A DNA stretch of 64,000 nucleotides from Candidatus Dojkabacteria bacterium HGW-Dojkabacteria-1 (lineage in GTDB: Bacteria; Patescibacteriota; Dojkabacteria; SC72): positions 239,242 through 303,241 of the forward strand of contig PHAO01000001.1 of NCBI GenBank assembly GCA_002840365.1, given 5' to 3'. Numbering within the stretch: the first letter of the stretch is position 1; each line of letters begins with the position of its first letter. Below are positions 8,348 to 51,903 of this stretch, piece after piece. Made by a program: the position numbers and the translations under genes. Under the pieces are notes generated by a model. It was not told where the DNA came from and did not search any database. It saw only the letters and a list, made by a program, of their open reading frames with translations.

Positions 8348-9497
8348 TACATACAAGATAGCGGTAGTAGCAGATCCTCTTTACAAATATGGTGGAGCAG
8401 AGAAACATCTAGGAGATATACTTAGAGCTTTTCCAAACAGTACTCTTTTTACTGCATTTTGTGATAGGGATTTTGTTAAAAAATACTATCCTAATGTTGA
8501 AATTAAAACTTCCTTTATGCAATATATACCGGGAAAGTTTAAGTTCAGATATTTTCTTCAGTTAATACAACCTCTAGCTTACAAATCTTTTAGATACAAA
8601 GGATATGATGCGATAGTTTCAATATCTATTGCCTTTGCAAAATTCACAAGAGGAAATATTCCACATATAAATATATGTATGTCTCCTACGAAGTTCTTCT
8701 GGGAGAAAGAGGGTAGAACACTTAAGGAGAACAATCAATTAAAAGGAATTAATAGATTCCTATTTAGCTTCTACTCCTTCTTTATGGATACCTTCTTAGA
8801 AGATATCTGGAAAGGGTGGGATAAGGGTGCAGCTCAAAAAGTAGATAAAATGATAGCTATATCAAAAGCAGTTCAAAAGCGTATTAAAAAGTATTACCAA
8901 AGAGATAGTGATGTAATATATCCTCCTGTTGAAGTAAAAGCTATTCAAGAATTAACTAAAGTAAATAGGAAAGAAAACTGGTTTCTGTATCTTGGAAGAG
9001 TAGAAACATACAAAGGAGTAGAGCTTGCAATAAGGGCAGCTCATGATGCTAAGGTACCACTTAAGATTGCAGGTATAGGGGATGATTTAGAAAGAATGAA
9101 GGAGTTGGTAAAGGAATTAAATGCAAAGGGTTATGTCAAATTCTTGGGTTTTGTTTCAGAAGAGGAGAAACTAGAATTACTTTCTAAAGCTAAGGCTTTG
9201 ATTTTTCCTGTTAGGGGAGAAGACTTTGGTATTGTCCCTGTAGAAGCCAATGCAGCTGGTACCCCCGTTATTGCTTACAGAGATGGTGGTGTAGTTGAAA
9301 CTATTTCGGATATTAATCCTAAGAGTGGAGAGTTTTTCAAAAAGTATGATTACAAATCTCTTGCAAGGATACTTAAGAAATTTGATGGAAGACAGTACAA
9401 GGCAGAAAACTGTAGAAAACAAGCAAGTAACTTTGCAGTAGAAATCTTTATTTACAAGCTACAAAGGTATGTAGATGATGCTATACAGAATCGTTAA
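8325..9497 (+). CDS. GT4-family glycosyltransferase (second copy, overlapping start with upstream gene)
   Basis: EDFGIVPVEANAAGTPVIAYRDGGVVETI GT4 motif; translationally coupled to 7199..8347. Confidence 0.85.
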   Translation: MTQKEKSSTYKIAVVADPLYKYGGAEKHLGDILRAFPNSTLFTAFCDRDFVKKYYPNVEIKTSFMQYIPGKFKFRYFLQLIQPLAYKSFRYKGYDAIVSISIAFAKFTRGNIPHINICMSPTKFFWEKEGRTLKENNQLKGINRFLFSFYSFFMDTFLEDIWKGWDKGAAQKVDKMIAISKAVQKRIKKYYQRDSDVIYPPVEVKAIQELTKVNRKENWFLYLGRVETYKGVELAIRAAHDAKVPLKIAGIGDDLERMKELVKELNAKGYVKFLGFVSEEEKLELLSKAKALIFPVRGEDFGIVPVEANAAGTPVIAYRDGGVVETISDINPKSGEFFKKYDYKSLARILKKFDGRQYKAENCRKQASNFAVEIFIYKLQRYVDDAIQNR

Positions 9498-10107
9498 AAG
9501 AATCCTTGATTTAATACTAGCCACAGTACTTTGGATACTTACATCTCCATTAATGTTGTTGATTTCGATATTGATAAAGGTGTCTGATGGAGGTGAGGTG
9601 TTTGTTGGTACCCCTATTAGATATGGTCTGAATGGGAAATCATTCTTTATGTACAAATTTCGTACAATGATTCCGAATGCTCATCATATTGCGATGAACA
9701 ATGGTGAAATCAAAGACAAACTTTTAGGTAATCACAAGCTTGAGGGTGATATGAGAGTAACAAAGATTGGAAAGATATTGAGAAATACAGACTTGGATGA
9801 ATTACCTCAACTTATAAATGTAATTCTTGGTCAAATGAGTATGGTTGGTCCTAGGCCTTTTTATGAGGAGGAGGTTCTACATCACTTAGAGAAATATCCA
9901 GAAGACAAAAAATATTTTGAAGTCATCTTTAAATCGAAGCCTGGATTAACTGGCATCTGGCAAGTATCAGGCAGGAATGAAATACCTTTTAGAAAGAGAC
10001 TACAAATGGAGAGTGAATATGCTCTTAAACCTAGTATACTTAAGGATATGTACATATTTCTAAAAACTCCAATAATCGTCCTTACAAGAAAAGGTGCTCT
10101 TCAGTAG
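9475..10107 (+). CDS. bacterial sugar transferase (undecaprenyl-phosphate phosphoglycosyl transferase, short WbaP/WcaJ C-terminal-domain type)
   Basis: Single N-terminal TM helix then YKFRTM ... DELPQLINVILGQMSMVGPRP, the PF02397 signature. Confidence 0.85.
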   Translation: MMLYRIVKRILDLILATVLWILTSPLMLLISILIKVSDGGEVFVGTPIRYGLNGKSFFMYKFRTMIPNAHHIAMNNGEIKDKLLGNHKLEGDMRVTKIGKILRNTDLDELPQLINVILGQMSMVGPRPFYEEEVLHHLEKYPEDKKYFEVIFKSKPGLTGIWQVSGRNEIPFRKRLQMESEYALKPSILKDMYIFLKTPIIVLTRKGALQ

Positions 10108-10120
10108 ACCCGGGTCTACT
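10103..10120. repeat. perfect 18-bp palindrome AGTAGACCCGGGTCTACT overlapping the TAG stop codon of the sugar transferase
   Basis: Sequence is its own reverse complement; a near-identical copy (AGTAGACTAGGGTCTACT) is at 15996..16013. Confidence 0.8.
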
Positions 10121-10148
10121 AATATGTCTTAATATAGATAGATAAAAA

Positions 10149-10162
10149 TAGACTAGAGTCTA
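10149..10162. promoter_or_regulatory. inverted repeat TAGACT-AG-AGTCTA ending 3 nt upstream of the recO start codon; candidate operator
   Basis: 6-bp arms sharing the TAGAC/GTCTA core with the 10103 palindrome. Confidence 0.35.
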
Positions 10163-10164
10163 CT

Positions 10165-10779
10165 ATGAGGGATATTGTAACTGTAATAAAGTCGGTTAAT
10201 TACTCAGAAGCAGATAAAGTGCTTACTGTTTTTGGTAAAAGCATAGGTAAGTTTGCTCTCTTTGCAAAAGGTATTAGAAAGATTAATAGTAAGAATAGGG
10301 GGAATATGCAAACTCTTTGTACTAGTGAAATATCCTTCTATGAGGGTAAGGGTTTACCTGTACTGACAGAATCACAGCTAATACACTCTCCTAATACAGA
10401 TGTTCTAAAGGACAGAGTCGAGAATCTAAACAGAGTTTTAGTTATGCTTAATCGTATCCTTGCAGAATATGATTCTAATGAAAAGGTTTTTGAGATGTTG
10501 CAAAGCGTCTTAAAGAAGGATTTCAATATTGAATCTGTTAACAGATTCCGAGTAATCTTTCTTAAAGAGATGGGTTTTTTGCAAGATTTTTCTAAGTGTA
10601 ATATCTGTGGTAATGAGAAAGATTTAAGATATATTGATGTTTCTAACTTTGCCCTTCTTTGTAAAAACTGTTACATTAATGTAGGAAAGTGCTATGAATT
10701 AGGTGATAATCCATATACAGAGGAATTCTTTACACAGGCTTTGGATATATATGTTAAGAAAGTAATTGAAGAGATATAG
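10165..10779 (+). CDS. recO: DNA repair protein RecO
   Basis: N-terminal OB-fold-like region; C-terminal CNICGN ... CKNC zinc-binding CxxC-N-CxxC; size 204 aa. Confidence 0.7.
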   Translation: MRDIVTVIKSVNYSEADKVLTVFGKSIGKFALFAKGIRKINSKNRGNMQTLCTSEISFYEGKGLPVLTESQLIHSPNTDVLKDRVENLNRVLVMLNRILAEYDSNEKVFEMLQSVLKKDFNIESVNRFRVIFLKEMGFLQDFSKCNICGNEKDLRYIDVSNFALLCKNCYINVGKCYELGDNPYTEEFFTQALDIYVKKVIEEI

Positions 10780-10781
10780 CT

Positions 10782-12845
10782 ATGAGAATTAAAACTGCCA
10801 TATTACAATTCTGTCTTCTTGTATCTCTTTTTCTTTTTGTTCCCAATATATATGCTCAATTACAAGAAGATGTTGTTGTTACAGCAAATATTAATGTAGA
10901 TTTTTACTCCACAGTAAATGTTAATCCTTCAACGGTAGAAATATTTCAACCTAGTATCGTAGAGATAAGGGTACTTAATCCTAATGGTCAGGGTATACCT
11001 GGAAGACAGATAGTGATTGTTGCTCCTGGATTAAATATTACCCAACCTATTACACTTACTGATGCAACTGGTAGGACAACAGGTTCTGTCTCTAGTGGTA
11101 CTGCAGGAACATATACTGTCTGTGCAAAGGATACTACCTTTGGCTATGACATTGATATACAAAACTGTAAAACCTTGTATGTAATTCCTGTACCAGTTCC
11201 AAGTATGCTTCCTGAGCCACAGTATACAAAGGGTTTAACTAATACTGTTTTATGGCAAAGTTTAGGTACTGCATATAGGTACAATGTTCAGGTTAGTGAA
11301 TTTTCAAACTTTAGCGTAATTAAGCAGGAGTCAGGAGTTATTAATGCTACATCTTTTGAGTTTACAAATCTTGAAAATGGAAAGATGTACTTTTACAGAG
11401 TAAGGGCTCAAAATCTCTTTGGTGGTATAGGTGGGTGGTCTAATTCTGTATATAGTGTTCAAGATGCACAAAATCCATCTATCTCCATATTAGATATTGG
11501 TGGTGTTGGAGAAAATACTACTAACAATTGGAGTAGTAGTTTTACAATTACAATGCTTTTCAGGGTTACAGATAACCTGCAATTAGCTAGTACTCAATTC
11601 ATATGTCTTAATTCCCAAGGTAATTCATATCCTTGTACAAATAGCTCTAATCAAGAAGGAGATATATTTACTGTAAATATTAGGTTAGGTGATTTAGAGA
11701 GAATCTCAGGTACATTCCTAAGGCAGAGATATGAGTTCTGTGTAGAGGCCGTAGATGGTGCTACAAATGTTCAAAGGTTGTGTAATATATATATTGATAT
11801 TCCTCCGGGTGAAGAGGTTGTAGAGCCTCCTGTAGTCCCTCCAATTATCAAACGAGTAGAGAAGGTAATAGAGGATATTAATGTAATATTAGATGATACT
11901 GTTGGTAAGTTAGATCCTAAGGATTTGGATAGGGTAACTACAACTACTTCTGTTGTTACTGCTACTTCCGCAATCGCTATTGCTGCTGGTGGTTTAGGTA
12001 GTCTTCCATATTTCCTTCTTCAGCTATTCCTTAATCTTCTTTCTTTACTTGGATTTAGAAAGGGTGCTAAGCCTGTTGGTTTTGTATATGACTCTGTTAC
12101 TAAAGAGCCAATTTCTCAAGCTATTGTTAGAATCTTTAATGAAGAGAGTCGTATTGTATGGTCAGATGTAACTGATGGTAAAGGATATTTTACGGCTAGA
12201 TTAAAGGATGGTAAGTACAAGATTGTAGTAAGAGCGCCAAGATATATATATCCTTCTACTGTAGTATTTGGTAAAGAAGATTATCCTGTTACCAATGTCT
12301 ATCATGGTGAAGAGTTTGTTGTATCAAGTGAGACAGAAATCAATTTTGCTATTCCTCTTGATCCAATGGAAACATCAAAGTTAAGACTTAGATTAGAAGG
12401 TTTCTGGACTAGAGTTAGGTTCATAGTGAACATTTTACATGTTCTTCTTTTCCTTGCTGGTATTACTTTAGCTTTCTATACATATTACAATTCACCGTCT
12501 GTTCTTTCATTGGTAGTACTTCTTCTGTTTGTTCCAACTTTCTTCTTCATATTAAGAAATATCTTCTTACACAGGGACAGGTATGGATTTGTTTTAGACA
12601 AAGCAAAGAATCGTTTGGAGGGAGTAGTCATTGGTCTAAGAGAGTCTGAGTTTGACAAGATTGTTGCAAAGAGAGTAACAGATGTAAGAGGTAGGTATAG
12701 GTTCCTTGCTGATGAGGGTAGATATTACATTGAGATTTTAGATACTGGTTACAAGGTAGAGAGTATTAAGGGTGGTAATGAGGTATATGTTAAGAAGGAG
12801 ATGTTGGTTACAAGGGATATTGTTCTTACAAGGTTATCTAAGTAG
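10782..12845 (+). CDS. secreted surface protein: signal peptide, Fn3-like domain, C-terminal TM + carboxypeptidase-regulatory-like beta-sandwich + TM segments
   Basis: N-terminal signal peptide ending IYAQ; YFYRVRAQNLFGGIGGWS Fn3 signature; C-terminal GFRKGAKPVGFVYDSVTKEPISQAIVRI ... EDYPVTNVYHGEEF module paralogous to the C-terminus of the 2203-aa protein. Confidence 0.7.
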   Translation: MRIKTAILQFCLLVSLFLFVPNIYAQLQEDVVVTANINVDFYSTVNVNPSTVEIFQPSIVEIRVLNPNGQGIPGRQIVIVAPGLNITQPITLTDATGRTTGSVSSGTAGTYTVCAKDTTFGYDIDIQNCKTLYVIPVPVPSMLPEPQYTKGLTNTVLWQSLGTAYRYNVQVSEFSNFSVIKQESGVINATSFEFTNLENGKMYFYRVRAQNLFGGIGGWSNSVYSVQDAQNPSISILDIGGVGENTTNNWSSSFTITMLFRVTDNLQLASTQFICLNSQGNSYPCTNSSNQEGDIFTVNIRLGDLERISGTFLRQRYEFCVEAVDGATNVQRLCNIYIDIPPGEEVVEPPVVPPIIKRVEKVIEDINVILDDTVGKLDPKDLDRVTTTTSVVTATSAIAIAAGGLGSLPYFLLQLFLNLLSLLGFRKGAKPVGFVYDSVTKEPISQAIVRIFNEESRIVWSDVTDGKGYFTARLKDGKYKIVVRAPRYIYPSTVVFGKEDYPVTNVYHGEEFVVSSETEINFAIPLDPMETSKLRLRLEGFWTRVRFIVNILHVLLFLAGITLAFYTYYNSPSVLSLVVLLLFVPTFFFILRNIFLHRDRYGFVLDKAKNRLEGVVIGLRESEFDKIVAKRVTDVRGRYRFLADEGRYYIEILDTGYKVESIKGGNEVYVKKEMLVTRDIVLTRLSK

Positions 12846-12900
12846 TTTGTATTGAAAAATCTTTAATCTACTGGTATTATTGCGTGTTTAACACTAACGT

Positions 12901-12973
12901 GGGTGTATAGCTCAATTGGTAGAGCAAACGGCTCTTAACCGTTAGGTTCAGGGTTCGAGCCCCTGTACACCCA
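12901..12973 (+). tRNA. tRNA-Lys (anticodon CTT)
   Basis: Canonical 73-nt cloverleaf: GGGTGTA acceptor, AACGG/CCGTT anticodon stem, loop CTCTTAA, T-arm CAGGG-TTCGAGC-CCCTG. Confidence 0.85.
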
Positions 12974-13115
12974 TTTTTTTGATTTTCCATATCTCATACA
13001 GAATATCTTACATCGAGTGATCCTTTGGGGTTTTATGTTAATGATTTCCCTTTCTAGTTATTGTTTAAGCACAATCTTGTAGGATTTTTTACAGGTCTAT
13101 ATAATATAGTGTTCT

Positions 13116-13127
13116 TTAACAGGTCGA
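13116..13127. repeat. left arm of a 12-bp perfect inverted repeat TTAACAGGTCGA flanking the small ORF 13158..13367 (right arm at 13378..13389)
   Basis: Exact reverse-complement match 251 nt apart. Confidence 0.8.
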
Positions 13128-13157
13128 GAAAAAAGCTACAAAGAAGAGGAGTGTAAA

Positions 13158-13367
13158 ATGGGCGATAGAAAAGTTACAAGTGAAACGGTAAAAGGATCAG
13201 AAGTGTCAGGTGGTCCAGTTCGGTATGATAGGTCTGTAACTACCAATAAAGATGGTTCAACGCACTCAACAGAATCGGTAACTACGGAAAGAAGTAGTGG
13301 AAGATTTTCGTGGGATACTGATAAGAATGGTAAAGTTACCAAAGTTCATGGAAACATGAATAAGTGA
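13158..13367 (+). CDS. small hydrophilic Thr/Ser/Asp/Lys-rich protein (69 aa), GC-richer than its surroundings
   Basis: Strong RBS AGGAG 7 nt upstream of ATG; flanked by the 12-bp inverted repeat; composition differs from neighbouring genes. Confidence 0.45.
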   Translation: MGDRKVTSETVKGSEVSGGPVRYDRSVTTNKDGSTHSTESVTTERSSGRFSWDTDKNGKVTKVHGNMNK

Positions 13368-13377
13368 TTTGTAAAAA

Positions 13378-13389
13378 TCGACCTGTTAA
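13378..13389. repeat. right arm TCGACCTGTTAA of the inverted repeat pair
   Basis: Reverse complement of 13116..13127. Confidence 0.8.
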
Positions 13390-13460
13390 TGGTAAGGAGA
13401 GATCAAAATCTCAGTATAATCTCTCCTTACCAGTTTTATCTAAATTTTCAGGTTATTAAA

Positions 13461-13697
13461 ATGACTTTTACCCATAAAAAGGATGGGAATCTTCTTTACG
13501 AGATAGAAATCACTATTAAAGCTTATACTAAGATCTCAGAAAAGGATAAAAAAAGAATCAATAAGATTGCTCTATTAATTGATGCATTAGGTTTTGAAGA
13601 AGAGAGAACAGAAAAAGCATATAGATTTGTCAAAGAGATGGAGAAGAATGAATATCTATTGGATATTGAAGATTGTACTAAGGAACAAAGTGACTAG
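13461..13697 (+). CDS. hypothetical small protein; start chosen at MTFTHKK, though the ORF is open from 13389
   Basis: ORF only, no motifs; start ambiguous. Confidence 0.3.
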   Translation: MTFTHKKDGNLLYEIEITIKAYTKISEKDKKRINKIALLIDALGFEEERTEKAYRFVKEMEKNEYLLDIEDCTKEQSD

Positions 13698-13881
13698 TGA
13701 ATTTATACTCTCAAGATTTTGCAAATTGTTCGACTTCTGTTCCTGTACATCCACCATTTGATTCTTGTTATACTCGTATGTAGGTTGGTTGAGAGGTGGG
13801 GAAGCTCTCCTAGTTATCTTCTATAACTTGCGATGTGAAGCATCTATGGATTATGTCCTGAAGCGGTTCAAGTCCTACAAC

Positions 13882-14340
13882 CTACAACAAGCAATAACTC
13901 TTCCTATCTATATATTCCTGTTCTTCTTGAAGTAGTAGATATTTGTTCTCCTGTAATTCCTTATACAGTTCTCCTCTTGTATATTCCTTTATACTTAGTG
14001 GTACCTGTTCTTTAGTACTGTACCACTCTCCACTTTTCTCTAGATATTTCCAATCAGTATTCTCAGTATCAAATTCATAGATATATACCTTTTCACCAAG
14101 ATATTCATCCTTTATCTTCCTATCTACTTTTACAGTAATGATTTCTGAGTTATTTGTAGTACTAGATGAGAATGATGATATCCCACTAAATACTGCAAAT
14201 ATCTTAGCTTTTAATTCGATATCTGTTGCAAAGATTACACCTTTTGGAGTAGGAGTAGGAAATTTATGATAGTCATCTGGGTGAACAATTTGAGGTTCAA
14301 ATGGGTTTAAGTAAAATCTACTACCTTTATATATTTTCAT
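13882..14340 (-). CDS. hypothetical protein immediately downstream of, and probably co-transcribed with, the Elp3-like gene
   Basis: 152-aa ORF, 3-nt gap from 14343..15938 on the same strand. Confidence 0.45.
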   Translation of the reverse strand: MKIYKGSRFYLNPFEPQIVHPDDYHKFPTPTPKGVIFATDIELKAKIFAVFSGISSFSSSTTNNSEIITVKVDRKIKDEYLGEKVYIYEFDTENTDWKYLEKSGEWYSTKEQVPLSIKEYTRGELYKELQENKYLLLQEEQEYIDRKSYCLL

Positions 14341-14342
14341 TT

Positions 14343-15938
14343 CTATATATCTTTTATCATATACAATTCCATATCATCAAACCCTCTTTTTCTGTAATAT
14401 TCTTTTGTACCAATAGCTGATATTACAGAAAGCTTTTTGAATTTGTTTTTTCTAGAAATATTCTCTGCAATCTCTATCATCTTCTTACCTAATCCTAGGT
14501 GTTGTGATTCTCCAGAACTATCTTTACCAATATTTACTAAAGAGCCATATACATGTACTTCCCTTATCATTGCACTACTTTTTATCTCCTCTATGTATGA
14601 GTCTCTTTTTGGTAATGAGAGTCTGAGGAAGGAACATATTCTATCTGTTTTTTGGGTTTTGTAAGAAATGAAATACTCTGTTGAGACAGTAGTTTGGTAT
14701 TTAATAGTTTCTAGTTCTAAATCTTCCCACTTTATATCCTCATCCTTTATCTCTCTACTTCTAATATCTTGTATCTTTTTACCAACTCTCTCTATCTCTT
14801 CTTCTGCTATTTGTCTAAAGTTGGTACTTTTGTTTCCATCCACTATCTCATTAGAAGGAATATCCCTAACTATTCTTGTTAGTCTTGTATATCTTGGTGT
14901 CTTGGGTAATATTTCTACAAAGAGTTTAAGTAGCTCTTCTCTTGTATATGGTTTGTAGTTACCTTCTTTGTAATATTTCTCTAAAAGTGTATTTGCAATT
15001 ATTGATGTAGGATATATCTTAAGTTCATCTGGTATATATTCTTTCTTCCAAAGCCTATCATAGTCTTTTATATCTTCTTTTACACTTGAGCCATACAAAT
15101 TTGGCATCCAATGGGCATGTATTTTAAAACCTGCCAACCGAAGTAATTCGAAAGCCTTCTTCGTTTCTTTTGTACTGTGTCCTCTTCTATTTGATTCTAA
15201 GATATTGTCATTGAGACTCTGTATCCCTATCTGTATCTTTGTTGCACCAAGTTTTCTTAATCTAATTACTTCCTCTTCCGTTATGTAATCTGGTCTTGTT
15301 TCTAATACTAGTCCTACATTTCTACATACAGTTGTTTCATTTATTCCTTGTGCTTTATACAATTCTTCCCAAGATATTTTCTCTGTACCCGTATCTTTCT
15401 CATACTTTGTATTACCAAAGCTATTCATTCCATCGAAACATCTTTTTACAAACCAAATTATGTACTGTTCAGGATAGAAGGAGCAAGTACCACCAAGTAT
15501 AATGAGTTCTATTTTATCTGTGTTATGTCCAATGTTTTGTAATGCCTTTATACGATTGTATGTTTGGTAGTAGGGGTCAAACTCATTCTTTAATGCTCTC
15601 TGTGCTCCTGGCTCACTAGCTATATATGACTTTGGCATTCTTACATCACTTGGACAGAATATACATTGCCCAGGGCATGCAAAGGGTTTCATAAGGACTG
15701 TTACTGTTGCTACACCAGATTGAGTTCTAGTTGGTTTCATCCTTATTCTTTCTTCTATTATTTTGTTTACTTCTATTTCTTTCTTTTTGAGTAATGTTTT
15801 GTATGCTTCTACTAGTTCATCATGTCTGTAAAGCCCTTTTCCCTCTTTTGGATATTTCTTAAGTATGGTTTGAAGGGAGTTTTCTCTCCATGTTTTAGTA
15901 TTTTGTATTTGTTCAAATATTTCTTTGAAATTTTGCAT
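14343..15938 (-). CDS. Elp3-like radical SAM / GNAT acetyltransferase (elongator protein 3 homologue; putative tRNA U34 modification enzyme)
   Basis: CPGQCIFCP (CxxxCxxC radical-SAM cluster) near the N-terminus after an Elp3-like leader; C-terminal HLGLGKKMIE ... YYRKRGF GNAT-like motif; 531 aa matches Elp3 size. Confidence 0.75.
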   Translation of the reverse strand: MQNFKEIFEQIQNTKTWRENSLQTILKKYPKEGKGLYRHDELVEAYKTLLKKKEIEVNKIIEERIRMKPTRTQSGVATVTVLMKPFACPGQCIFCPSDVRMPKSYIASEPGAQRALKNEFDPYYQTYNRIKALQNIGHNTDKIELIILGGTCSFYPEQYIIWFVKRCFDGMNSFGNTKYEKDTGTEKISWEELYKAQGINETTVCRNVGLVLETRPDYITEEEVIRLRKLGATKIQIGIQSLNDNILESNRRGHSTKETKKAFELLRLAGFKIHAHWMPNLYGSSVKEDIKDYDRLWKKEYIPDELKIYPTSIIANTLLEKYYKEGNYKPYTREELLKLFVEILPKTPRYTRLTRIVRDIPSNEIVDGNKSTNFRQIAEEEIERVGKKIQDIRSREIKDEDIKWEDLELETIKYQTTVSTEYFISYKTQKTDRICSFLRLSLPKRDSYIEEIKSSAMIREVHVYGSLVNIGKDSSGESQHLGLGKKMIEIAENISRKNKFKKLSVISAIGTKEYYRKRGFDDMELYMIKDI

Positions 15939-15995
15939 CGTGTATTATACTGGTAAACCCTAGTCTAACAGAAGAGCTTTATGTAGAGGTTTTTT

Positions 15996-16013
15996 AGTAG
16001 ACTAGGGTCTACT
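15996..16013. repeat. near-palindrome AGTAGACTAGGGTCTACT overlapping the TAG stop (minus strand) of the flavoprotein gene; second copy of the 10103 element
   Basis: 7-bp arms AGTAGAC/GTCTACT with a 4-nt spacer; complementary CCCTAGTCTA lies at 15958..15967. Confidence 0.75.
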
Positions 16014-17228
16014 TCTTGCGGCAGTAATTCCTGTACTCCAACATATTTGTAAGTTGTATCCTCCTGTTGGGCCATAGACATCTATTATCTCTCCTGCAAA
16101 GTAGAGGTTATCTATGAGTTTGGATTTCATAGTTTTAGGATCTATTTCCTTTATACTTACTCCTCCACTAGTTACGATTGCCTTGTCCCAGCTTTCTAGT
16201 CCTGATACTGTTAATTTGAAATCCTTAAGTAAGTCTATTATGGTATTCCTTTGTTCCCTGTTTATATCACATGCTTGAGTTGAGGGGGGTATTTGAGAAA
16301 GATCTACAACGATGGGGATTAGAGAAGATGGAAGGTAGCTTTTAAGTAGGGTTCTTAAGTTTTTTCTACCACTTTCTTTTAAATCATGTTGCAACCTTTT
16401 GTCTAATTCTTCCTTTGGTATTGCTGGTTTAAAATCTATACTGATATTTACTTCCCCTTTTTCAAGTGCATCTCCAATCTCTCTAGACATATCAATCACT
16501 ATCGGACCACTTAATCCTTCGTGTGTGAAAAGGGCTTCTCCAAATTTACTACATACCTTTTTCTCATTTTGATATGCAGAAATAGTAACGTATTTAAGAG
16601 ATAGTCCTGCTAATTCTTTTACATATTTTTCTTTACAAAGTATTGGTACTAGAGCTGGTTTAAGCTCTGTAATTGTATGCCCTATTTCTTTTGCTAGAGT
16701 ATATCCATCTCCATTTGATCCTGTTACTGGGTATGTTTTTCCTCCTGTTGCAAGAATATATTTTTTTGCTTTGAAGTCTCCCTTGTATGTAGTTACCGAT
16801 GAGATTGTATTTCCATCCATATTGAATTTCATTACTGAAGTATTTGGTAATATGTTTTCTCCTACCTGTTCAGTTAATGCATATATGATGTCTACAGCCT
16901 TATCACTTTTAGGAAATACTCTTTTTCCTCTTTCTACCTTTAAGGGTATCTTAAGTATATCTTTGAAATATTTCATAGTATCTTCTACTGAAAATCTTGA
17001 AAAAGCTCCGTAGAGAAATTTTCCATTTCTTTGATATTTGGAGACTAAATCATCAAGATTTGTATTATGGTTTGTTACATTACATCTTCCTTTACCAGTA
17101 ATTACTAACTTTTTCCCTGGTCTCGGATTTCTTTCTATGATTAAGAATGATTGTCCTAATCTTTTACACTCAACTCCTGCGATGAGTCCTGCTGCTCCCC
17201 CTCCAATTATTATTGTGTCATATGTCAT
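16002..17228 (-). CDS. HI0933/BaiN-family FAD-dependent oxidoreductase
   Basis: N-terminal YDTIIIGGGAAGLIAG Rossmann dinucleotide fold and KGRCNVTN, typical of the HI0933 family. Confidence 0.75.
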   Translation of the reverse strand: MTYDTIIIGGGAAGLIAGVECKRLGQSFLIIERNPRPGKKLVITGKGRCNVTNHNTNLDDLVSKYQRNGKFLYGAFSRFSVEDTMKYFKDILKIPLKVERGKRVFPKSDKAVDIIYALTEQVGENILPNTSVMKFNMDGNTISSVTTYKGDFKAKKYILATGGKTYPVTGSNGDGYTLAKEIGHTITELKPALVPILCKEKYVKELAGLSLKYVTISAYQNEKKVCSKFGEALFTHEGLSGPIVIDMSREIGDALEKGEVNISIDFKPAIPKEELDKRLQHDLKESGRKNLRTLLKSYLPSSLIPIVVDLSQIPPSTQACDINREQRNTIIDLLKDFKLTVSGLESWDKAIVTSGGVSIKEIDPKTMKSKLIDNLYFAGEIIDVYGPTGGYNLQICWSTGITAARSRP

Positions 17229-21641: not shown

Positions 21642-24600
21642 TTATGTTCTTGCTATCTTAAGATTTCTGTTAATCAATTTTCTTCCCTTAGTTGATATTT
21701 CTGTTTTACCTTCTACAATCTTTATACCACTATCTGTTGTTTCTATAATATATTCTCCTTTCTCTGAGATATCAAATGAGTATCTCCCTTCCGAGTCTGT
21801 AACTCTTTTTGCTACTACCTTATCAAAATCTTTGTCCTTAAGTATGAGTATGATATTTACAGCGGGTGTACCATTTTCATAAAGAACTTTTCCTGTTTTT
21901 CTTCTCATACCAATAATGCTTTTTACAAGAACATATGTGGTTGGAATGTAAAGTAGTAATATCGCTAGGTTTTGTGTAATTGGATTCTTTGAGTATACAT
22001 ATGAAGCTATTGTAATACCTCCAAGGAAGAGAATTAGGTTTATGATTGGTAGTATAGATGAAGCAAAACTTCTGAAGAGAGTAAATGCTTTCTTTTGTAT
22101 TGCTTTCTGATCTGGGTCTATGGGGATTACAACATTTATTTCATTTTCCTTAAGCAGTATCTTTTCTCCGTGGTATACATTGGAAAGTGGGTAATCTTCC
22201 TTTCCAAGTATTAGTTTAGATGGGAAGTCATAGTTTCTTCCTTTCACTTCAAGTATATATTCTCCGGTAGGGATGTCTGTTCTAAAGAGTCCATACCCAT
22301 CTGTTACTGCAGTATCAACAAGTTTTTTCTCAAGATCATATATTCTAACAATTGCTTGCTGTATTGGTGCTCTTGTAATTGAATCATATACATATCCAGC
22401 AGGGTATCTCTTTCTTCTAAACCCTATTGAGCTTAGGATGTTGATAAAGATTTGTGACATAGCATATCCTACCTGTCCAAGGTTTCCTAAGATTGATGCT
22501 AATCCTACTGAAACAGTAACTGCAGTAGCAGTAGCTGATACCGTAGTGAGTCTTTCTTTTTCTATATTTCCCAGTGGTGAGCTATCAAGTAAATTGAATG
22601 TTGTAGTTACTACTCCCTCTACTGCATTAGAGATGTTGTCCCTTATTCTTCCTGTTGTTGGTATTACTGCTGGTTTCTCATACAGTTCTCCCTGTGCACC
22701 TGTTCCTCTTAGTCCATCTGCTATCCAATATGTTACTCCTGATATACTTGCTTGAGATACTGTTACATCATTTCCTTCGACTTTTAGCTTTTGAGGGAAG
22801 TTTCCTGTATACAGGACTGCTTTGTTACAATCAACTTTTATTTCTTCTAAGCTTCTTGCTTCTGGACATATTCTAAATGCGTTGTCTGAATCCTTTTTAA
22901 CTACATACATAGTATACTTATCTGTTAATCCATGTGTAGTATTAAGCTTCACAACAGTCTTACCTTGTTGTGGAGAAGTTTGAATAATTGCATTACTCCA
23001 GTCTCTGTTGTTCTCAAATGATATTGGTAAGTCAGCTACAACAAAATCTTCAGTTAAGATTCTTACTGTTTGAACACCTGTTTGTGCTCCTTCAACATTA
23101 CTTACATCAATATTTCTGTTGTCTACAAGTATAGTACTTATGTTTTCAGGCTTGTTAAGAATAATGGAGAATGTTTTACCTGTATTACTTTCTACAAATG
23201 CAGTTTCTACATTTGCATTGTTAATAGCCTTAACTCTAAATGCATATTGGGCTCCAGGTTCAAGAGATCTAATTGTTAAACCGGTATTTCCTCCCCATGA
23301 TGAATGCGTTCCCCAAACGACATTGTCTACAAGTTGCATGGTTGTATAGTCAAGATATTTTCCAGTGTTACTTTCCTGTATTGCAAATCTTGTAGTAGTG
23401 GGGTTTCCATTTCTGTCGAATCTTATCCTACCTGTACTTCCTCCTACGGTTTCAAAGATTAGGTCTCTTGGAAGGTTGGCCCATGTGGTAGCAGAAATTG
23501 TTTCAGAGAATCCTGAGAACAAATTATCTGAGTTAACGCTTCTTACTCTAAAGGTATATGTTGTATTTGGTGGAAGATTTGCTAATGTGAAGTTACTGTT
23601 TACTCTTGTATCATCATGTATTACTGTTGCAGTTGTAAATCTGTTTTCGTTATCAATATTTCCATTTGTTACTGCTTCAACCAATTGATATCTTGTATTT
23701 GCAGGATTAAGATTCTTGTCTACAGTTAATTCTATTGAACTTCCACTAATTACTCTTGCTCTTACACTTGGTACTCTTGAGAAGGTATGTGCACTTATTG
23801 ATTGGGAACAATCTGTTTCAAGATTTTGAGAGTTTCTTGCTCTTACACAGAATGTATATCTTGTATTGGCTTCTAGGTTTTGAATATTTACTCCACTGTT
23901 ACTACCGAAATCTTGTAAGGATCTCCATACAGGTTGTGTATCGAATACTCTTGTTGATGGATTCACATTCTGATTACGATTTACTTCCATTAATCTGTAT
24001 GTAGTAGAGGTGTTGTTACTGTTAGCATTAATCACTACAGACATTGTAGTTGTATCAATTGCTGTTACAGAGGTAATAGCTGGTTGGTAAGAAAGAGTAA
24101 TGATACTTACTTCATTACCATATTCTGTCTCTATGGAGTCATCATTAAGGGCTTTTACTCTGAAGGTATATTCTGTATTTGGTAATAGTCCATATACGGT
24201 TATTCCATTATTTGAGCCCAACTGTATATATGTTGCATAGTAGGGTGAGTCCTGAAGTAATTGAGAGTTAGTATTAAGATATTTCCCAGAGATTTTTTCT
24301 TGTAGAAGATATCTAGTAGTAGAAGGATTATTATTTGTATTTACAGTTAAGTCAACACTGTCAGCAGTATATTTTCCTGCTGTAATATTTTGTAATGATG
24401 GTACATTTGCAAACGTTATTGCAGAAACCACATTACTAAATGTACTCTCTGCAATACTGTTGTATATTTTCATTTTCCTTGAGTAAGAGGTATTAGGTTG
24501 CAGGTTGTTTTCTGTACAGCTAAGTATTTCTGTCCCAAGACAGGTTTTAATTAATACTCCATTTTCGTTATACAACTTAATACCTAATATACTGTCTGTA

Positions 24601-27600
24601 TATTCAGATATTCTCCATGTTATTTGACTACTTGAATCAACAACTGGAGCTATTGCTGTGATTGGTGAGAGTAGGGTAGTAGCAGAGGATGTTCCAGAGA
24701 AGTCCGTTTCAACATTTTCTCCATTTCTTGCTTTAACCTTGAAAGTGTATGTTGTTCCTGAATTTAACCCTATTACACTAAATGGTGTTAAATCTGCATT
24801 GTTCTCTCCCCAGAATGGAGTTGCTTGTAATTCTCCTGTTGTTAAATTTAGATATTTGCCTGTAAATGTTTCTTGTATTAGAAGCTCAGTATATTCTGGA
24901 TTTGCTCCATTCAGTACTCTTAGAGATATTGTTGAATTACTTGTAGCATATACATCTGTAAGACTTGGTGTTGTTGCGAGTGTATATGTAGAAATTTGGG
25001 TTGAATAAAGGGTTTCTTGTCCATCGAAGTTTCTTGCTTTTACTCTGAATGTGTACTGTGTATTTGGTTGTAATCCTATTGCTACATCTGATGTACTTTT
25101 AATCCACTCCCTTATTCCCGAATCACATCCTGTTTCTATACATTCAAAGAAGAGTCCAGAATCTCCTGTTGAGAGATTGTTTACTCCAGTTGCATTAAGA
25201 GATACAGAGGTAGTAGAGAGTGGGCCTGCAGAGAGAGTCGGTACACTTGCTTGAGTATATATGGTTATTGTATCTGAATATTCTGTTTCAACATTATCTC
25301 CATTTCTAGCTTTTACCTTAAATGTATATGGTGTGTTGTTTGAGAGTCCTGTTACGGTAGGATTATTGTCTAGTGTCCATACATTAATATTTGTATCGCA
25401 ACTACCCTCGCAATCAAAGTACAGTTCTCCACCATTTACTGGTTGTGTTGCTGTGAGAGATATTGAAGTATCTGTCTTAACTCCAGAATATTGTATTGTT
25501 GGAACAGATACTAATGTATATGCACTTGCGCTGTTTGAGGGAGAGCTTTCTGCTTCATTGTTAAATACGATTGCGTATCTTGTATATTGTGTATTTTCAG
25601 AGAGATTCTCTTCATCACAATATGTTAGATTTTGACCTACACAAGTTACTTTAAGAATGTCATTTTCATCATACAGCATTATTCCTTCCTCTCCACTTGC
25701 ATTATCAACGAATTCCCAACGCATTGATGTGGTCGTAAGTGGTGTTCCTTTAAACTCTGTTACAGTGTTTGGTACATCAAGCATTTTAAAAGTAGCTGTT
25801 GAGGACCAAGGGCTTTCTGTACCAGGTGTATCTATGAATCTTATCCTCCAAAAGTATGTTACTCCGTTTAGTGAAAGAGCTACTCCTTCATATTGAATTG
25901 GTATTGATCTTAAGCCATTCTCAATCCGGTCACTTCCTAAAAGCGCTATATATCCACTATCCCACATAGTTGTACCTGTAAAGGAAGAATTTGTATTTAC
26001 TTGGACTTGATAATGAGTTCCAAGATCTGAAGGATCAGAATCAGTAAAGACTGCACTAAACTGAGGCTGTAATGTTGTTACTTGGGTTGGATTTGTTTGA
26101 TTGTTTGTTTCAAGTGAAGATGGTGCATTAGGTGTAGAATTCATCTTGAAGGTATTTGTTGACGACCAACCACTAACAGATCCATTTACATCCCATACTC
26201 TCATTCTCCAGTAATATGTAGTACCATCAAGTGTCAAAGTATTTCCTTGGTATGTTATATTTGGAGTTCTTGTATTGTTTGCAGTTGTGGCCATAGAGGT
26301 CTCACCACTATCCCACATAGTTGTACCTGTAAAGGAAGAATTTGTATTTACTTGTATCTGATACTTGTTACCACTGTCACCATCAGGGTCTGTAAACAAA
26401 GCGCTGAAATTAGGTTGTGTGTTTGTAATAGAGGTTGGATTTACTAATCCTTCCGTTTGTAGTTGTGTTGGGGCGCTTGCAGGAGTATTCATCCTGAAAG
26501 ATGCTGCAGAGGACCATGCCCCTTCTGCACCTTTGTTATCCCAGTATTTTATTCTCCAGTAATATGTAACTCCATTCAAAGTGAGATTAGATTGTCCATA
26601 TGTAATATTTGGTCCTCTTGTTCCTCTTGTTACTGCAGAGATATTTATTTTTCCACTATCCCACATCGTAGTACCATTAAACGCTGATGTTGTATTTACT
26701 TGTAATTGATATGACACCCCTGTATCTCCAGTATCTGGATCATTGAAAATTGCACTGAAAATAGGGTTCATTGTTGTTACTCTCGTAGGATTTGTAGCAT
26801 CATTTGTTGTAAGGCTTGTAGGTGCTGTTGGAGGTGCGTTGTAAGTCTCCTCCGCGCTTTGGGAGACATTTACAGATGCTTTTCTTTGAGCAAAAATGGT
26901 TGTTATGTATGGTGGGAGTGCTTGTACTGCGGATGTTGTCGCTGTACAGCTATGAGTATGTGTATCATGCACGAAGGCTGAACCTGAAACCCTATATATT
27001 CCCTGAGAACTTGCACTCTGTCCTCCCGTTGTAACACTTATACTGTGGGTGTGTGTTGCTCCTGCGTATGAAGAACCTGCTGTTACAGCTCCAAGTGGAA
27101 ATTTTCCATCAAGAGCGGAAAATCTTGTCCAGCCGTATGGTGGAAGAGCTGTTGTCATTTCAATAATGCCGTTACTGGCATATGTTAAGGTAGAAGCCTG
27201 TCCATATGTTACTGAATAATATGGAATGTTATTATTTCCTGCTGTAGTAGTGGTACTGTTCGTCGTATGGAAGTGGTTTGCCGCAGCACTTGTACTACTG
27301 TGGGCGTCCTTACTATCCCTAGAATTGTTTGTTCCAGTATTGTATCCACCCGTGGCACTATGTGTATGTGTTGCAGATCCCCCACTTGCTACAAACCCAT
27401 TTCCACCCTTTGGATATCTTCCTGTGAGAGTTGAATAGTAAGTGAAATTAGCAGCTAGAGTTGTTGAGTTTGTATTAAACATTGCAATGGTATTTGCTGG
27501 ATGTGAGAGAGAAGTGTTTGAACAGTAGTATAGTTGGGTGAATGGGGGGTCAATCGTTGTATCTGTTACATTTACGGTTGCTCCTGTATGAGTATGATTA

Positions 27601-28253
27601 GCTAGCTGTGCAGTAGTGTTGGGAGAATCATCGTCAGCACCATTATGGAAAGTTCCAATTGCTGTTCCAGTTGTACAACTTGCAGTTCCATGATTATGGG
27701 TACCATTGGAACTTGTGCCATAGGAGGAGGAACCATATGGAAATTTCCCATCATATACACTTTCTCTAGTCCATCCACTTGGGCATGATGCAGAAGAAAG
27801 GACAAGGAATTTCCCACTCCAGGATGCTTGTCCACTTGTTGCGGAAGGGTTTGAATAGTAGAGATAAATTGTCTTACCTGCTGCAGGAAGACTTGGAATT
27901 CTGACCCAAACTTGTGTAGTTGTTGTATTACATCCTCCCTCTATCCAGTATGCAAGTAATGTCGTGTCATTACTATCAACAAATCGTAAGTCATTACAAT
28001 TAGATTGTAATTTTCCACTTGATATTAATGTTGATGTATTTACCACTACTAAAACATCTTCGTTTGTAAGGTCGGAACCTGTACCACTAACTGTTAATGT
28101 TCTTCTATTTGCCCAACTACTGTTATACCAGCCCCTTACCTCTTGTACATTCGTACTCATTACAAATATAGCCGTGATTAAACCAGTAAGACTAAGAAGT
28201 GCAATTACAAATATCAATATTTTCCTAAGTTTCTTTTTCTTGGCAGTTTTCAC
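21642..28253 (-). CDS. giant (2203 aa) cell-surface protein: N-terminal DUF2341/LamG-like domain, His/Thr-rich HTH-repeat region, about ten tandem Fn3 domains, C-terminal carboxypeptidase-regulatory-like domain and TM anchors
   Basis: N-terminal TM/signal; LRFVDSNDTTLLAYWIEGG ... VWVRIPSLPAAGKTIYLYYSN (DUF2341-like); repeated ATHTHS/HDTHTHS motifs; repeated TYYWRI(K/R) ... WSS and YTF(K/R)VKARN ... ETEYS Fn3 units with about 100-aa period; C-terminal GFRRKRYPAGYVYDSITRAPIQQAIVRI module. Confidence 0.85.
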   Translation of the reverse strand: MKTAKKKKLRKILIFVIALLSLTGLITAIFVMSTNVQEVRGWYNSSWANRRTLTVSGTGSDLTNEDVLVVVNTSTLISSGKLQSNCNDLRFVDSNDTTLLAYWIEGGCNTTTTQVWVRIPSLPAAGKTIYLYYSNPSATSGQASWSGKFLVLSSASCPSGWTRESVYDGKFPYGSSSYGTSSNGTHNHGTASCTTGTAIGTFHNGADDDSPNTTAQLANHTHTGATVNVTDTTIDPPFTQLYYCSNTSLSHPANTIAMFNTNSTTLAANFTYYSTLTGRYPKGGNGFVASGGSATHTHSATGGYNTGTNNSRDSKDAHSSTSAAANHFHTTNSTTTTAGNNNIPYYSVTYGQASTLTYASNGIIEMTTALPPYGWTRFSALDGKFPLGAVTAGSSYAGATHTHSISVTTGGQSASSQGIYRVSGSAFVHDTHTHSCTATTSAVQALPPYITTIFAQRKASVNVSQSAEETYNAPPTAPTSLTTNDATNPTRVTTMNPIFSAIFNDPDTGDTGVSYQLQVNTTSAFNGTTMWDSGKINISAVTRGTRGPNITYGQSNLTLNGVTYYWRIKYWDNKGAEGAWSSAASFRMNTPASAPTQLQTEGLVNPTSITNTQPNFSALFTDPDGDSGNKYQIQVNTNSSFTGTTMWDSGETSMATTANNTRTPNITYQGNTLTLDGTTYYWRMRVWDVNGSVSGWSSTNTFKMNSTPNAPSSLETNNQTNPTQVTTLQPQFSAVFTDSDPSDLGTHYQVQVNTNSSFTGTTMWDSGYIALLGSDRIENGLRSIPIQYEGVALSLNGVTYFWRIRFIDTPGTESPWSSTATFKMLDVPNTVTEFKGTPLTTTSMRWEFVDNASGEEGIMLYDENDILKVTCVGQNLTYCDEENLSENTQYTRYAIVFNNEAESSPSNSASAYTLVSVPTIQYSGVKTDTSISLTATQPVNGGELYFDCEGSCDTNINVWTLDNNPTVTGLSNNTPYTFKVKARNGDNVETEYSDTITIYTQASVPTLSAGPLSTTSVSLNATGVNNLSTGDSGLFFECIETGCDSGIREWIKSTSDVAIGLQPNTQYTFRVKARNFDGQETLYSTQISTYTLATTPSLTDVYATSNSTISLRVLNGANPEYTELLIQETFTGKYLNLTTGELQATPFWGENNADLTPFSVIGLNSGTTYTFKVKARNGENVETDFSGTSSATTLLSPITAIAPVVDSSSQITWRISEYTDSILGIKLYNENGVLIKTCLGTEILSCTENNLQPNTSYSRKMKIYNSIAESTFSNVVSAITFANVPSLQNITAGKYTADSVDLTVNTNNNPSTTRYLLQEKISGKYLNTNSQLLQDSPYYATYIQLGSNNGITVYGLLPNTEYTFRVKALNDDSIETEYGNEVSIITLSYQPAITSVTAIDTTTMSVVINANSNNTSTTYRLMEVNRNQNVNPSTRVFDTQPVWRSLQDFGSNSGVNIQNLEANTRYTFCVRARNSQNLETDCSQSISAHTFSRVPSVRARVISGSSIELTVDKNLNPANTRYQLVEAVTNGNIDNENRFTTATVIHDDTRVNSNFTLANLPPNTTYTFRVRSVNSDNLFSGFSETISATTWANLPRDLIFETVGGSTGRIRFDRNGNPTTTRFAIQESNTGKYLDYTTMQLVDNVVWGTHSSWGGNTGLTIRSLEPGAQYAFRVKAINNANVETAFVESNTGKTFSIILNKPENISTILVDNRNIDVSNVEGAQTGVQTVRILTEDFVVADLPISFENNRDWSNAIIQTSPQQGKTVVKLNTTHGLTDKYTMYVVKKDSDNAFRICPEARSLEEIKVDCNKAVLYTGNFPQKLKVEGNDVTVSQASISGVTYWIADGLRGTGAQGELYEKPAVIPTTGRIRDNISNAVEGVVTTTFNLLDSSPLGNIEKERLTTVSATATAVTVSVGLASILGNLGQVGYAMSQIFINILSSIGFRRKRYPAGYVYDSITRAPIQQAIVRIYDLEKKLVDTAVTDGYGLFRTDIPTGEYILEVKGRNYDFPSKLILGKEDYPLSNVYHGEKILLKENEINVVIPIDPDQKAIQKKAFTLFRSFASSILPIINLILFLGGITIASYVYSKNPITQNLAILLLYIPTTYVLVKSIIGMRRKTGKVLYENGTPAVNIILILKDKDFDKVVAKRVTDSEGRYSFDISEKGEYIIETTDSGIKIVEGKTEISTKGRKLINRNLKIART

Positions 28254-42930: not shown

Positions 42931-43446
42931 TTATACTTTTTCATTCCCAATTATCTGATATATATCATTCCGAATTTTCCCAATATTGTTTACATCTGTA
43001 CTTTGTATCCTAAGTAGAGGCATATTGGCTTCTTGAAAGATTCTTTCTACTAAATTATCTCTATCTCTCCTATCATTTCTTGAGTGGGAGATATCATCTA
43101 ATTCTATTGCTAAAAGGGGTGAAAGATATACTTTGTCACAGATTACATAGTCTATAGATTTTCTTTGTATATGGCTTAGAGCCCCTTTCCAGTCTTGTCC
43201 TATTACTTTGTTATCTAATATTGAATCTAAATGTATCTGTGGAAATATGTAATATCGGTTATCTAACAGTTGGTTTAAGGTCTTAAAGAGATCGGATTCC
43301 GCTTTTGTTAATAGGTACTTCTTTCTAGTATATTGATATATTTTTTTGGTTTTATACCTATTTTTCTTTTTTATTAATGATGAAACTACAGAGAGTAATG
43401 CAAAGATAGGGATGAGGATTAGGATGTATATTATGAAGGTATCCAT
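42931..43446 (-). CDS. membrane-anchored DUF2726 (NERD-like) domain protein
   Basis: N-terminal TM; KSIDYVICDK ... AIELDDISH ... RDRDNLVERIF resembles the DUF2726 pattern. Confidence 0.5.
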   Translation of the reverse strand: MDTFIIYILILIPIFALLSVVSSLIKKKNRYKTKKIYQYTRKKYLLTKAESDLFKTLNQLLDNRYYIFPQIHLDSILDNKVIGQDWKGALSHIQRKSIDYVICDKVYLSPLLAIELDDISHSRNDRRDRDNLVERIFQEANMPLLRIQSTDVNNIGKIRNDIYQIIGNEKV

Positions 43447-43472
43447 GTTAATAGTATATATTGTTGTTTAGA

Positions 43473-51823: not shown

Positions 51824-51896
51824 GCGCTGGTGGGGAAGTTGGTATCCCGTTGGATTTTAAATCCAAAGCTCGAAGGTTCAAGTCCTTCCCAGCGCG
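51824..51896 (+). tRNA. canonical 73-nt tRNA cloverleaf with anticodon TTA (reads UAA/UAG); suppressor-type tRNA with Gln-like features (discriminator G73, UUUUAAA loop)
   Basis: Acceptor GCGCTGG/CCAGCGC, D-arm GGGA-AGTTGGTA-TCCC, anticodon stem TTGGA/TCCAA with loop TTTTAAA, variable AGCTC, T-arm GAAGG-TTCAAGT-CCTTC; all arm lengths canonical. Confidence 0.55.
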
Positions 51897-51903
51897 CCTT
51901 AAG

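Follow-up and report, generated by a model that had tools for sequence, protein, structure and literature searches.

Miniature inverted-repeat transposable elements (MITEs) of bacteria, such as the Correia elements of Neisseria, RUP and ERIC, are short non-coding insertions with terminal inverted repeats. They are usually 100-400 bp in size and enter intergenic DNA near promoters and gene ends, and their hairpins, when transcribed, can alter the fate of the mRNA. Mycobacterial interspersed repetitive units (MIRUs) are tandem direct repeats with small open reading frames (ORFs), not palindromic doublets. We describe here a 62-bp palindromic doublet (the unit) that is present twice, next to recO and next to elp3, in a stretch of 64,000 nucleotides (the window) from Candidatus Dojkabacteria bacterium HGW-Dojkabacteria-1, and we compare it to these elements and to repetitive extragenic palindromic (REP) sequences. 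In REP doublets forming hairpins (REPINs), two inverted units are separated by a fixed distance, and the spacer between them is less conserved (Bertels & Rainey 2011, PMC3116915). Dimers of the GTAG REPs have GTAG on the outside and spacers of 20-100 bp that are alike in length and unlike in sequence; the GTAG REPs sit near ORF 3' ends, between unidirectional or convergent ORFs, and flanking ORFs often have their TAG stop in the termini of these repeats (Di Nocera et al. 2013, PMC3733652). The eight phyla listed in that paper do not include the candidate phyla radiation (CPR, or Patescibacteria), and we searched the literature without finding REP-, REPIN- or MITE-type elements described from this lineage.

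One palindromic doublet at two gene junctions

We found that both loci are copies of one 62-bp non-coding unit (Table 1). Each copy consists of a first palindrome (pal1) of 18 bp, a spacer of ~26-28 bp and a second palindrome (pal2) of ~17 bp, adding up to exactly 62 bp at both loci. The two ~18-bp palindromes are of the form AGTAGAC-N4-GTCTACT and have their centers exactly 44 bp apart, and the doublet carries GTAG at each of its outer ends (A-GTAG-AC ... GT-CTAC-T). Because the 44-bp spacing and the 62-bp length are equal at the two loci, we treat the two palindromes as parts of one bipartite unit. In copy 2, pal1 and the reverse complement of pal2 match at 14 of 15 positions, including the non-palindromic center (CCTA/TAGG). 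One palindrome is thus an inverted copy of the other, and the pair forms terminal inverted repeats. In a related genome (L229, below), pal2 of the elp3 copy has the same 15-nt core as copy 1 pal2. The gene upstream of copy 1 encodes a bacterial sugar-transferase (Bac_transf, 9475-10107) and the gene downstream of copy 2 encodes Elp3, a radical-SAM/GNAT tRNA-modification enzyme (14343-15938, minus strand). Copy 2 is directly upstream of the aGTATAAT of elp3. The two copies lie in opposite orientations, one at either end of a 5.8-kb segment.

Table 1. The two copies of the unit in the window and their parts.
Feature	Coordinates	Strand	Description
Unit, copy 1	10103..10164	+	between the Bac_transf stop and the recO start
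Copy 1 pal1	10103..10120	+	perfect 18-bp palindrome AGTAGACCCGGGTCTACT; holds the TAG stop (10105-10107) of the gene at 9475-10107
Copy 1 spacer	10121..10147	+	AT-rich; alignable to the spacer of no other copy
Copy 1 pal2	10148..10164	+	aATAGACTAGAGTCTACT; abuts the recO ATG at 10165
Unit, copy 2	15952..16013	-	separates the HI0933-like stop from the elp3 promoter
Copy 2 pal1	15996..16013	-	minus-strand AGTAGACCCTAGTCTACT; stop (16002-16004) of the gene at 16002-17228 in the central CTAG
Copy 2 spacer	15969..15995	-	no alignable match among the spacers of other copies
Copy 2 pal2	15952..15968	-	minus-strand TTAGACTAGGGTTTACC; the degenerate palindrome proper is 15953-15968 (TTAGACTAGGGTTTAC)
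Flank outside copy 2	15944..15949	-	elp3 TATAAT -10 box, 5 nt before the ATG (15938)

An earlier note on this DNA had pointed out several of these palindromes. It had described a perfect 18-bp palindrome holding the TAG stop of the transferase gene, and AGTAGACCCGGGTCTACT is indeed found there. It had placed a second inverted repeat 3 nt before the recO ATG. This repeat, TAGACTAGAGTCTA at 10149-10162, is present, but only 2 nt separate its core from the ATG; counting the additional bases of the arm (GTCTACT), it extends to 10164 and touches the ATG. The same arms do recur at 15996-16013, as noted, in AGTAGACTAGGGTCTACT. This third palindrome also contains a TAG stop as claimed, although its position and frame are unlike those at the first locus. 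The note missed the degenerate palindrome at 15953-15968, which lies 44 bp from the one at 15996-16013.

The match between the loci is far above the level of chance. Allowing up to two mismatches, GTAGAC-N4-GTCTAC has 7 matches, compared to 1.75 expected, a count that was reached in none of 100 shuffles. In the window plus its flanks (84 kb), AGAC-N4-GTCT has 4 matches compared to 0.93 expected. In contrast, the bare 7-mer GTCTACT is not enriched (10 matches, 8.7 expected), and weak matches to the palindrome are at or below the level expected by chance. Because the palindrome is enriched and the 7-mer is not, the signal consists of four sites in two paired loci and not of a densely dispersed word.

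The unit in related genomes

We collected related loci through homologues of Elp3 and RecO. All of the homologues with a named source are from Candidatus Dojkabacteria, in the CPR/Patescibacteria lineage. The unit is present at the two junctions in some of these relatives and absent from others.

At the elp3 junction, three relatives (L213, L235 and L231) have an empty site that reads ...aga TCA TAG TATAATACACG ATG, with the stop of the HI0933-like gene overlapping the elp3 -10 region. In L213 and L235, the empty junction has the form ...gatcaTAGTATAATACACGATG, and the GTATAATACACG-ATG of the window elp3 is found there as well; the empty junctions of L231 and L134 resemble this form. Overall, L213 has ~82.6% nucleotide identity to the window, and its BLAST alignment breaks exactly at window positions 15952-16013, which replace 4 nt (TCAT). 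In a fourth relative (L134) the two genes abut (gcaagatcat ATG) and the unit is absent. The closest relative by Elp3 (L229; 92% identical) contains the unit at elp3, with a perfect pal2, a decayed pal1 and the 44-bp spacing. That is, one palindrome is degraded in each of the elp3 copies of L229 and the window, and it is not the same one. L230 has a remnant only, which matches part of the window spacer (CTAACAGAAGAGCTTTATGTAGA, + strand) in inverted orientation relative to elp3; its score against the elp3 spacer was 23, reached by none of 300 shuffles.

We also noticed changes in the gene upstream of elp3. The HI0933-like flavoprotein gene is deleted in several close relatives (L229, 8700-8825; L230, 4315-4417; and L219), leaving a short 3' remnant beside the unit in L229 and beside the unit remnant in L230. 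In a more distant lineage, a single palindrome is found at the elp3 junction, at the HI0933-like 3' end (L215, ~14494-14530; L236, ~15728-15765). L215 carries AAGAGACCCACGTCTTT as this singlet and L236 carries AAGAGATACTCATCTTT, with arms changed from GAC/GTC to GAT/ATC, a compensatory change inside coding sequence.

At the recO junction, the unit is present at varied stages of decay in L213 (RecO 93% identical), L215 (87%), L236 (81%) and L134 (79%); the L215 copy is decayed. Of all 8 copies of the unit, 7 have a spacing of 44 bp; in L134, where the pal1 spacer is 5 nt, it is ~44.5 bp from center to center. In contrast, the unit is absent from L234 (RecO 94% identical), L231, L153 and L154, in which Bac_transf overlaps recO, and from L219, which has a 22-nt spacer at this junction. 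The window organism, L234 and L213 are roughly equidistant from each other. Presence and absence are therefore patchy among close relatives. The earlier note had called for a comparison with orthologous intergenic regions, and what this comparison revealed is an insertion that is patchy at both junctions. Judging from these alignments, the unit is shown to be a discrete insertion at junctions where the genes of relatives abut or overlap.

One copy was found outside the Dojkabacteria. A metagenome-assembled genome (MAG) from Saccharibacteria (L120) contains AGTAGACCCTAGTCTAC and, 44 bp on, TAGACCTGGGTACAC; the first of these is identical to the window elp3 pal1 across 17 bases. This copy is flanked by a LiaF-like gene, which ends with a TAG stop in the left arm, and by a UDG gene that converges on it and enters the unit with its 3' end. 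A promoter is not expected there.

The TAG serves as a stop codon at all three junctions (3/3), two of them unidirectional (in the window) and one convergent (in L120). The earlier note suggested that a conserved palindrome with an embedded stop is a dispersed functional element. The TAG is indeed embedded, but the location of the stop differs among copies: it is in the left arm at recO and in the center at elp3, whereas L213 has pal1 inside an extended ORF and the stop in L236 is 6 nt upstream. Because of this variation we read the embedded stop as a by-product of where the unit landed, and not as a designed feature. In L213, the sugar-transferase ORF (9327-9965), lacking ~19 nt, runs through pal1 to a TGA in the spacer; there, the palindrome therefore encodes the C-terminus of the protein (…VRPGSSRGS).

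The unit is predicted to fold in two ways, as local hairpins or as one long stem. As RNA, the pal1 hairpins have predicted energies of -8.0 kcal/mol in copy 1 and -8.2 kcal/mol (z = -3.7) in copy 2. The hairpins of pal2 are at about -3.5 to -4.5 kcal/mol, with that of copy 1 at -3.5 kcal/mol. The long stem between pal1 and pal2 has 15-16 bp in the elp3 copy (-22.8 kcal/mol, z = -3.5), and the whole-unit stem of the recO copy is at -23.4 kcal/mol (z = -3.1). Folded as single-stranded DNA, only the elp3 copy stands out (-9.6 kcal/mol, z = -2.6). In the local-hairpin model, ~75% of cells across eight copies are paired, which none of 500 shuffles reached, and the covariation score is 0.176 compared to 0.106, which 8 of 500 shuffles reached. 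In addition, one pair in pal2 of L236 has changed from A:T to C:G, a compensatory change. Together these comparisons lend modest support to the notion that dyad pairing is maintained within each palindrome.

A proposed insertion element and its rivals

The unit has features of several known elements. Like REPINs, bacterial interspersed mosaic elements (BIMEs) and the 'HH dimers' of GTAG REPs, it consists of inverted palindromes at a fixed distance around a poorly conserved spacer, with GTAG on the outside. Like REP doublets, it could fold as two hairpins or as one long hairpin, it differs in presence among related genomes, and one partner decays and singlets remain. Like GTAG REPs, it lies just downstream of ORFs, between unidirectional or convergent genes, with a GTAG end that gives the TAG stop. 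It resembles MITEs in being short and non-coding, in having terminal inverted repeats and in its location beside promoters and gene ends. Like MIRUs, it lies between operon genes, overlapping the upstream stop and abutting the downstream start, but it is a palindromic doublet and not a tandem direct repeat that carries an ORF.

Our best explanation, which we hold with moderate confidence, is that the unit is an insertion element of the REP-doublet (REPIN/BIME) or MITE kind, low in copy number and able to form hairpins within operon mRNA. We would class it as a new type of mobile palindromic doublet, present in few copies, in CPR bacteria. A small REP-like repeat was among the options listed in the earlier note, and it is the one favored by the discrete 62-bp insertion that is absent from the junctions of relatives, by the inverted, GTAG-headed ends, and by the copy between convergent genes in another CPR class. 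If the unit is such an element, its GTAG head would land on, or supply, the TAG at the 3' end of an ORF, and the stop would be embedded because the head meets or provides a TAG in a genome almost without intergenic space. The unit would be co-transcribed with the neighboring genes. As RNA or single-stranded DNA, it would fold into two local hairpins or one stem of 15-16 bp, as REPs and BIMEs do, and the folded unit may shield the upstream 3' end or make a processing site between cistrons. It could be copied by an enzyme that recognizes hairpins, for which a Y1 transposase of the IS200 or RAYT (REP-associated tyrosine transposase) type is a candidate.

Several observations weigh against this explanation. 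Classical REPs and REPINs are present in hundreds of copies per genome. In contrast, we found no more than two copies of the unit in 84 kb of this genome and no copy beyond the same two junctions in ~1.2 Mb of related loci, and the strict bipartite pattern matched one CPR genome among 185,579 species representatives. Unlike REPs that are mobilized by RAYTs, the unit has no transposase or RAYT (Y1 HUH) gene that we could see in the window, its +/-10 kb flanks or the loci of relatives. Unlike GTAG REPs, which are 20-40 bp and have an unpaired GTAG tag, the palindromes of the unit are 18 bp and their GTAG pairs with CTAC inside the same palindrome. Unlike MITEs, the unit is only 62 bp, each of its terminal repeats is itself palindromic, and we recognized no consistent target-site duplication at the filled and empty junctions that were compared. 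Covariation in the long pal1-pal2 stem was not above that in shuffles. L213 has retained the AGAC/GTCT half-sites and the 44-bp spacing despite weak hairpins, which also fits a protein-binding site. Last, homology between the spacers of different copies was not demonstrable by local alignment with shuffles. Identity at four-fold degenerate sites is 59-64% between the compared genomes, and unalignable spacers are therefore compatible with neutral saturation. An ungapped comparison had suggested that the 'orthologous' spacers are hyper-divergent; we dropped this idea because local alignment with shuffles shows only that they are non-alignable. Given the paired GTAG, the 18-bp palindromes, two copies in 84 kb and no transposase seen, membership of the unit in the REP/RAYT family is not established. 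We also saw no insertion sequence in the window, the flanks or those loci of relatives that were read.

The main alternative, which we judge possible but unlikely, is that the unit is a paired operator. Each palindrome would be bound by a dimeric helix-turn-helix repressor (e.g., of the TetR or phage-CI type) that straddles or occludes the recO and elp3 promoters. Each palindrome is a dyad-symmetric site of 16-18 bp, and two dimers at a distance of 44 bp would be roughly four helical turns apart. The AGAC/GTCT half-sites show no variation and the 44-bp phasing is preserved, whereas the spacer is variable. Further, the elp3 pal2 is at about -29 to -15 of a leaderless-type promoter and the recO pal2 abuts the ATG. 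In Actinomycetota, half-sites of the same type (GTAGAC-N4-GTCTAC) form pairs with a distance of 42-47 bp in front of TetR-family genes; such pairs also precede FabR-like genes in Marinobacter, and there are phage contigs with a triple TAGACA-NN-TGTCTA operator at a 22-bp period. However, the paired sites of those other bacteria lie before their regulator gene and are conserved along with it. In contrast, the Dojkabacteria unit behaves as an insertion, and we found no helix-turn-helix or TetR regulator gene in 84 kb (window plus flanks). The sites come and go as whole blocks of 58-62 bp and close relatives lack them in front of recO and elp3, pal1 is translated through in L213, and the L120 copy is between convergent genes and partly in a coding region. 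The distance to the start codon is 13 nt greater at one window locus than at the other, a conserved -10 box at a fixed position in the spacer is lacking, and the compensatory change in L236 is confined to one palindrome. The operator shared by recO and other genes that was proposed in the earlier note is still a live rival, although it is weakened by the insertion polymorphism, by the copy between convergent genes and by the region upstream of recA, which has no such site.

A further version, about which we are rather doubtful, is that the unit is a horizontally mobile protein-binding cassette common to Dojkabacteria and Saccharibacteria, or a mini-element moved by an enzyme that is not a RAYT. 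If it is a cassette, a candidate CPR protein would bind the two dyad sites at a selected 44-bp phasing, and insertion at a junction would rewire or insulate the expression of recO, elp3 and the UDG gene.

The earlier note also considered a terminator or attenuator, in which the pal1 hairpin after the stop codon would end or attenuate transcription toward recO or elp3. Pal1 does form a 7-bp hairpin of about -8 kcal/mol directly after a stop codon, a terminator scan weakly flagged 10103-10120, and the hairpin in L120, between convergent genes, is followed by CTTTTT. There are also many unrelated AGTAGAC-N4-GTCTACT hairpins in viral contigs that are terminator-like, with T-runs. However, the sequences downstream of the hairpins in the window, AATATGTCTT and AAAAAACC, have no T-tract, and this explanation therefore fails for both window copies. 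In addition, pal2 lies directly before start codons, where it cannot terminate, the stems in L213 are down to 4 bp although the sequence is retained, and neither the fixed bipartite 62-bp layout nor the insertion polymorphism is explained. We regard a terminator as improbable.

Site-specific recombination, with the palindromes serving as a mini invertible switch or as attC/dif-like crossover sites, seems very improbable. Two simple sites with inverted 7-bp arms around a variable center do resemble attC, the L230 remnant is in inverted orientation, and the window copies are mutually inverted around a 5.8-kb segment, the middle of which varies between relatives. However, this segment is inverted in none of the relatives compared, no recombinase gene was seen, and the arms do not match the attC R-box consensus (GTTRRRY). 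Moreover, tyrosine recombinases in general need a core longer than 4 bp, and sites 26 bp apart are too close together to synapse. Last, a chance likeness of two unrelated palindromes, which the earlier note had allowed for, is hardly credible. Palindromes that are short and AT-rich do occur commonly, and no enrichment was seen for the 7-mer arms. However, two sites match exactly at 12 positions and two more match nearly, none of 100 shuffles reached the number of hits observed, the spacing is identical at both loci, and relatives have units at the same junctions.

We considered and rejected several other candidates. The proximity to recO prompted us to consider an SOS (LexA) box; a recA-recX-recJ operon lies just to the right of the window and has no palindrome upstream of recA, and a check of the literature on LexA/SOS boxes yielded no matching motif. 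A text search of the literature for the motif returned primer noise only. A DNA-uptake sequence was rejected based on the lack of 7-mer enrichment, and a known RNA family was rejected because an Rfam search of 9500-16500 gave only a tRNA and noise. A CRISPR-like repeat-spacer-repeat does not fit, as the repeats are 18 bp and mutually inverted and the spacers have no exact match in IMG/VR. Each spacer contains -10-like hexamers, but their start positions vary by ~9 nt and a promoter scan found no canonical promoter inside the unit. None of the small ORFs between the two copies had a Pfam match that would indicate a local regulator.

Similar palindromes, other window features and what the unit may mean

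Related palindromes are found in other organisms. Ten loci from Actinomycetota (L110, L111, L115, L116, L117, L123, L125, L127, L130 and L131) have a conserved pair of sites, ctaGTAGACacgcGTCTACtag and GTAGACacgtGTCAAg, 42-47 bp apart. In 6 of the 10 (L110, L111, L117, L125, L127 and L131) an ORF of ~200 amino acids is directly downstream, and the five of these ORFs that were read are TetR-like by eye; in the remaining loci the downstream ORF was ambiguous or was not found by our script. These site pairs are probably autoregulatory operators. In Marinobacter and Tamilnaduibacter (L106, L113 and L122), three tandem GTAGAC-N4-GTCTAC/GTATAC sites are upstream of FabR-like genes of the TetR family, and in Paraburkholderia (L104) two such sites are upstream of a similar FabR-like gene. 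Four phage contigs from IMG/VR (L221, L222, L227 and L228) have three ATAGACAnnTGTCTAT operators with a 22-bp period in what looks like a phage immunity region, and L224 has a tandem array of a 22-bp unit, TAGACATTCGTCTTATACACAG. Viral matches to the single palindrome were mostly unrelated terminator hairpins.

The genome scan also returned MAGs of Gastranaerophilales (L103, L105, L108, L118, L126 and L129), which contain multi-copy nested inverted repeats (GGTAGACTAAAGTCTACCCTAC ... GTAGGGTAGACTTTAGTCT...). This is a different, nested-repeat family and was set aside; within Melainabacteria, it seems to be a true repeat of the MITE or REP type.

The window itself has a G+C content of ~34%, and no other repeat family of the kind described here was found in it. 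Between the two copies of the unit, a variable stretch (12845-14340) runs from a gene for a 687-amino acid surface protein with tRNA-Lys(CTT) (12900-12974) to the end of the elp3 operon. The small ORFs in this stretch differ in every relative in which we looked at the same region (L213, L215, L219, L231 and L236). At six starts (458, 15938 on the minus strand, 17228 on the minus strand, 18546 on the minus strand, 42150 and 49613), the ATG is preceded by GTATAAT at a distance of 5-7 nt and lacks a Shine-Dalgarno sequence. With GTATAAT this close to the ATG, leaderless or very short-leader mRNAs look common in this genome, as far as its sequence indicates.

Three further features of the window lie away from the unit. 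Just after tsaD, at 51824-51898 (+ strand), is a well-formed tRNA (68.8 bits in Rfam) with the anticodon UUA, which would read the stop codon UAA. Most genes in the window still end in TAA, and this tRNA therefore looks like a suppressor and not like a sign of a full change in the genetic code. A small defense-like island (42931-47094, minus strand) contains the gene for a 1017-amino acid, single-chain restriction-modification enzyme that is MmeI/Type ISP-like, with the domains Type_ISP_C, N6_Mtase and Eco57I; its neighbors are DUF5677 and DUF2726 proteins. Last, an ORF of 2203 amino acids (21642-28253, minus strand) has several internal repeat families spaced ~270-350 nt and is probably a giant surface protein with Ig-like repeats.

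Genomes of CPR bacteria are tiny and gene-dense, and repeats are generally rare in them. If the unit is a miniature insertion element as we propose, then miniature mobile DNA would be active even in these streamlined genomes. The doublet would be a marker of recent genome change between close lineages, and it would point to sites at which genes that would otherwise be joined in operons may be uncoupled by mRNA structure or by protein binding. For annotation, it explains why some ORFs of these genomes stop inside one and the same palindrome or run through it.

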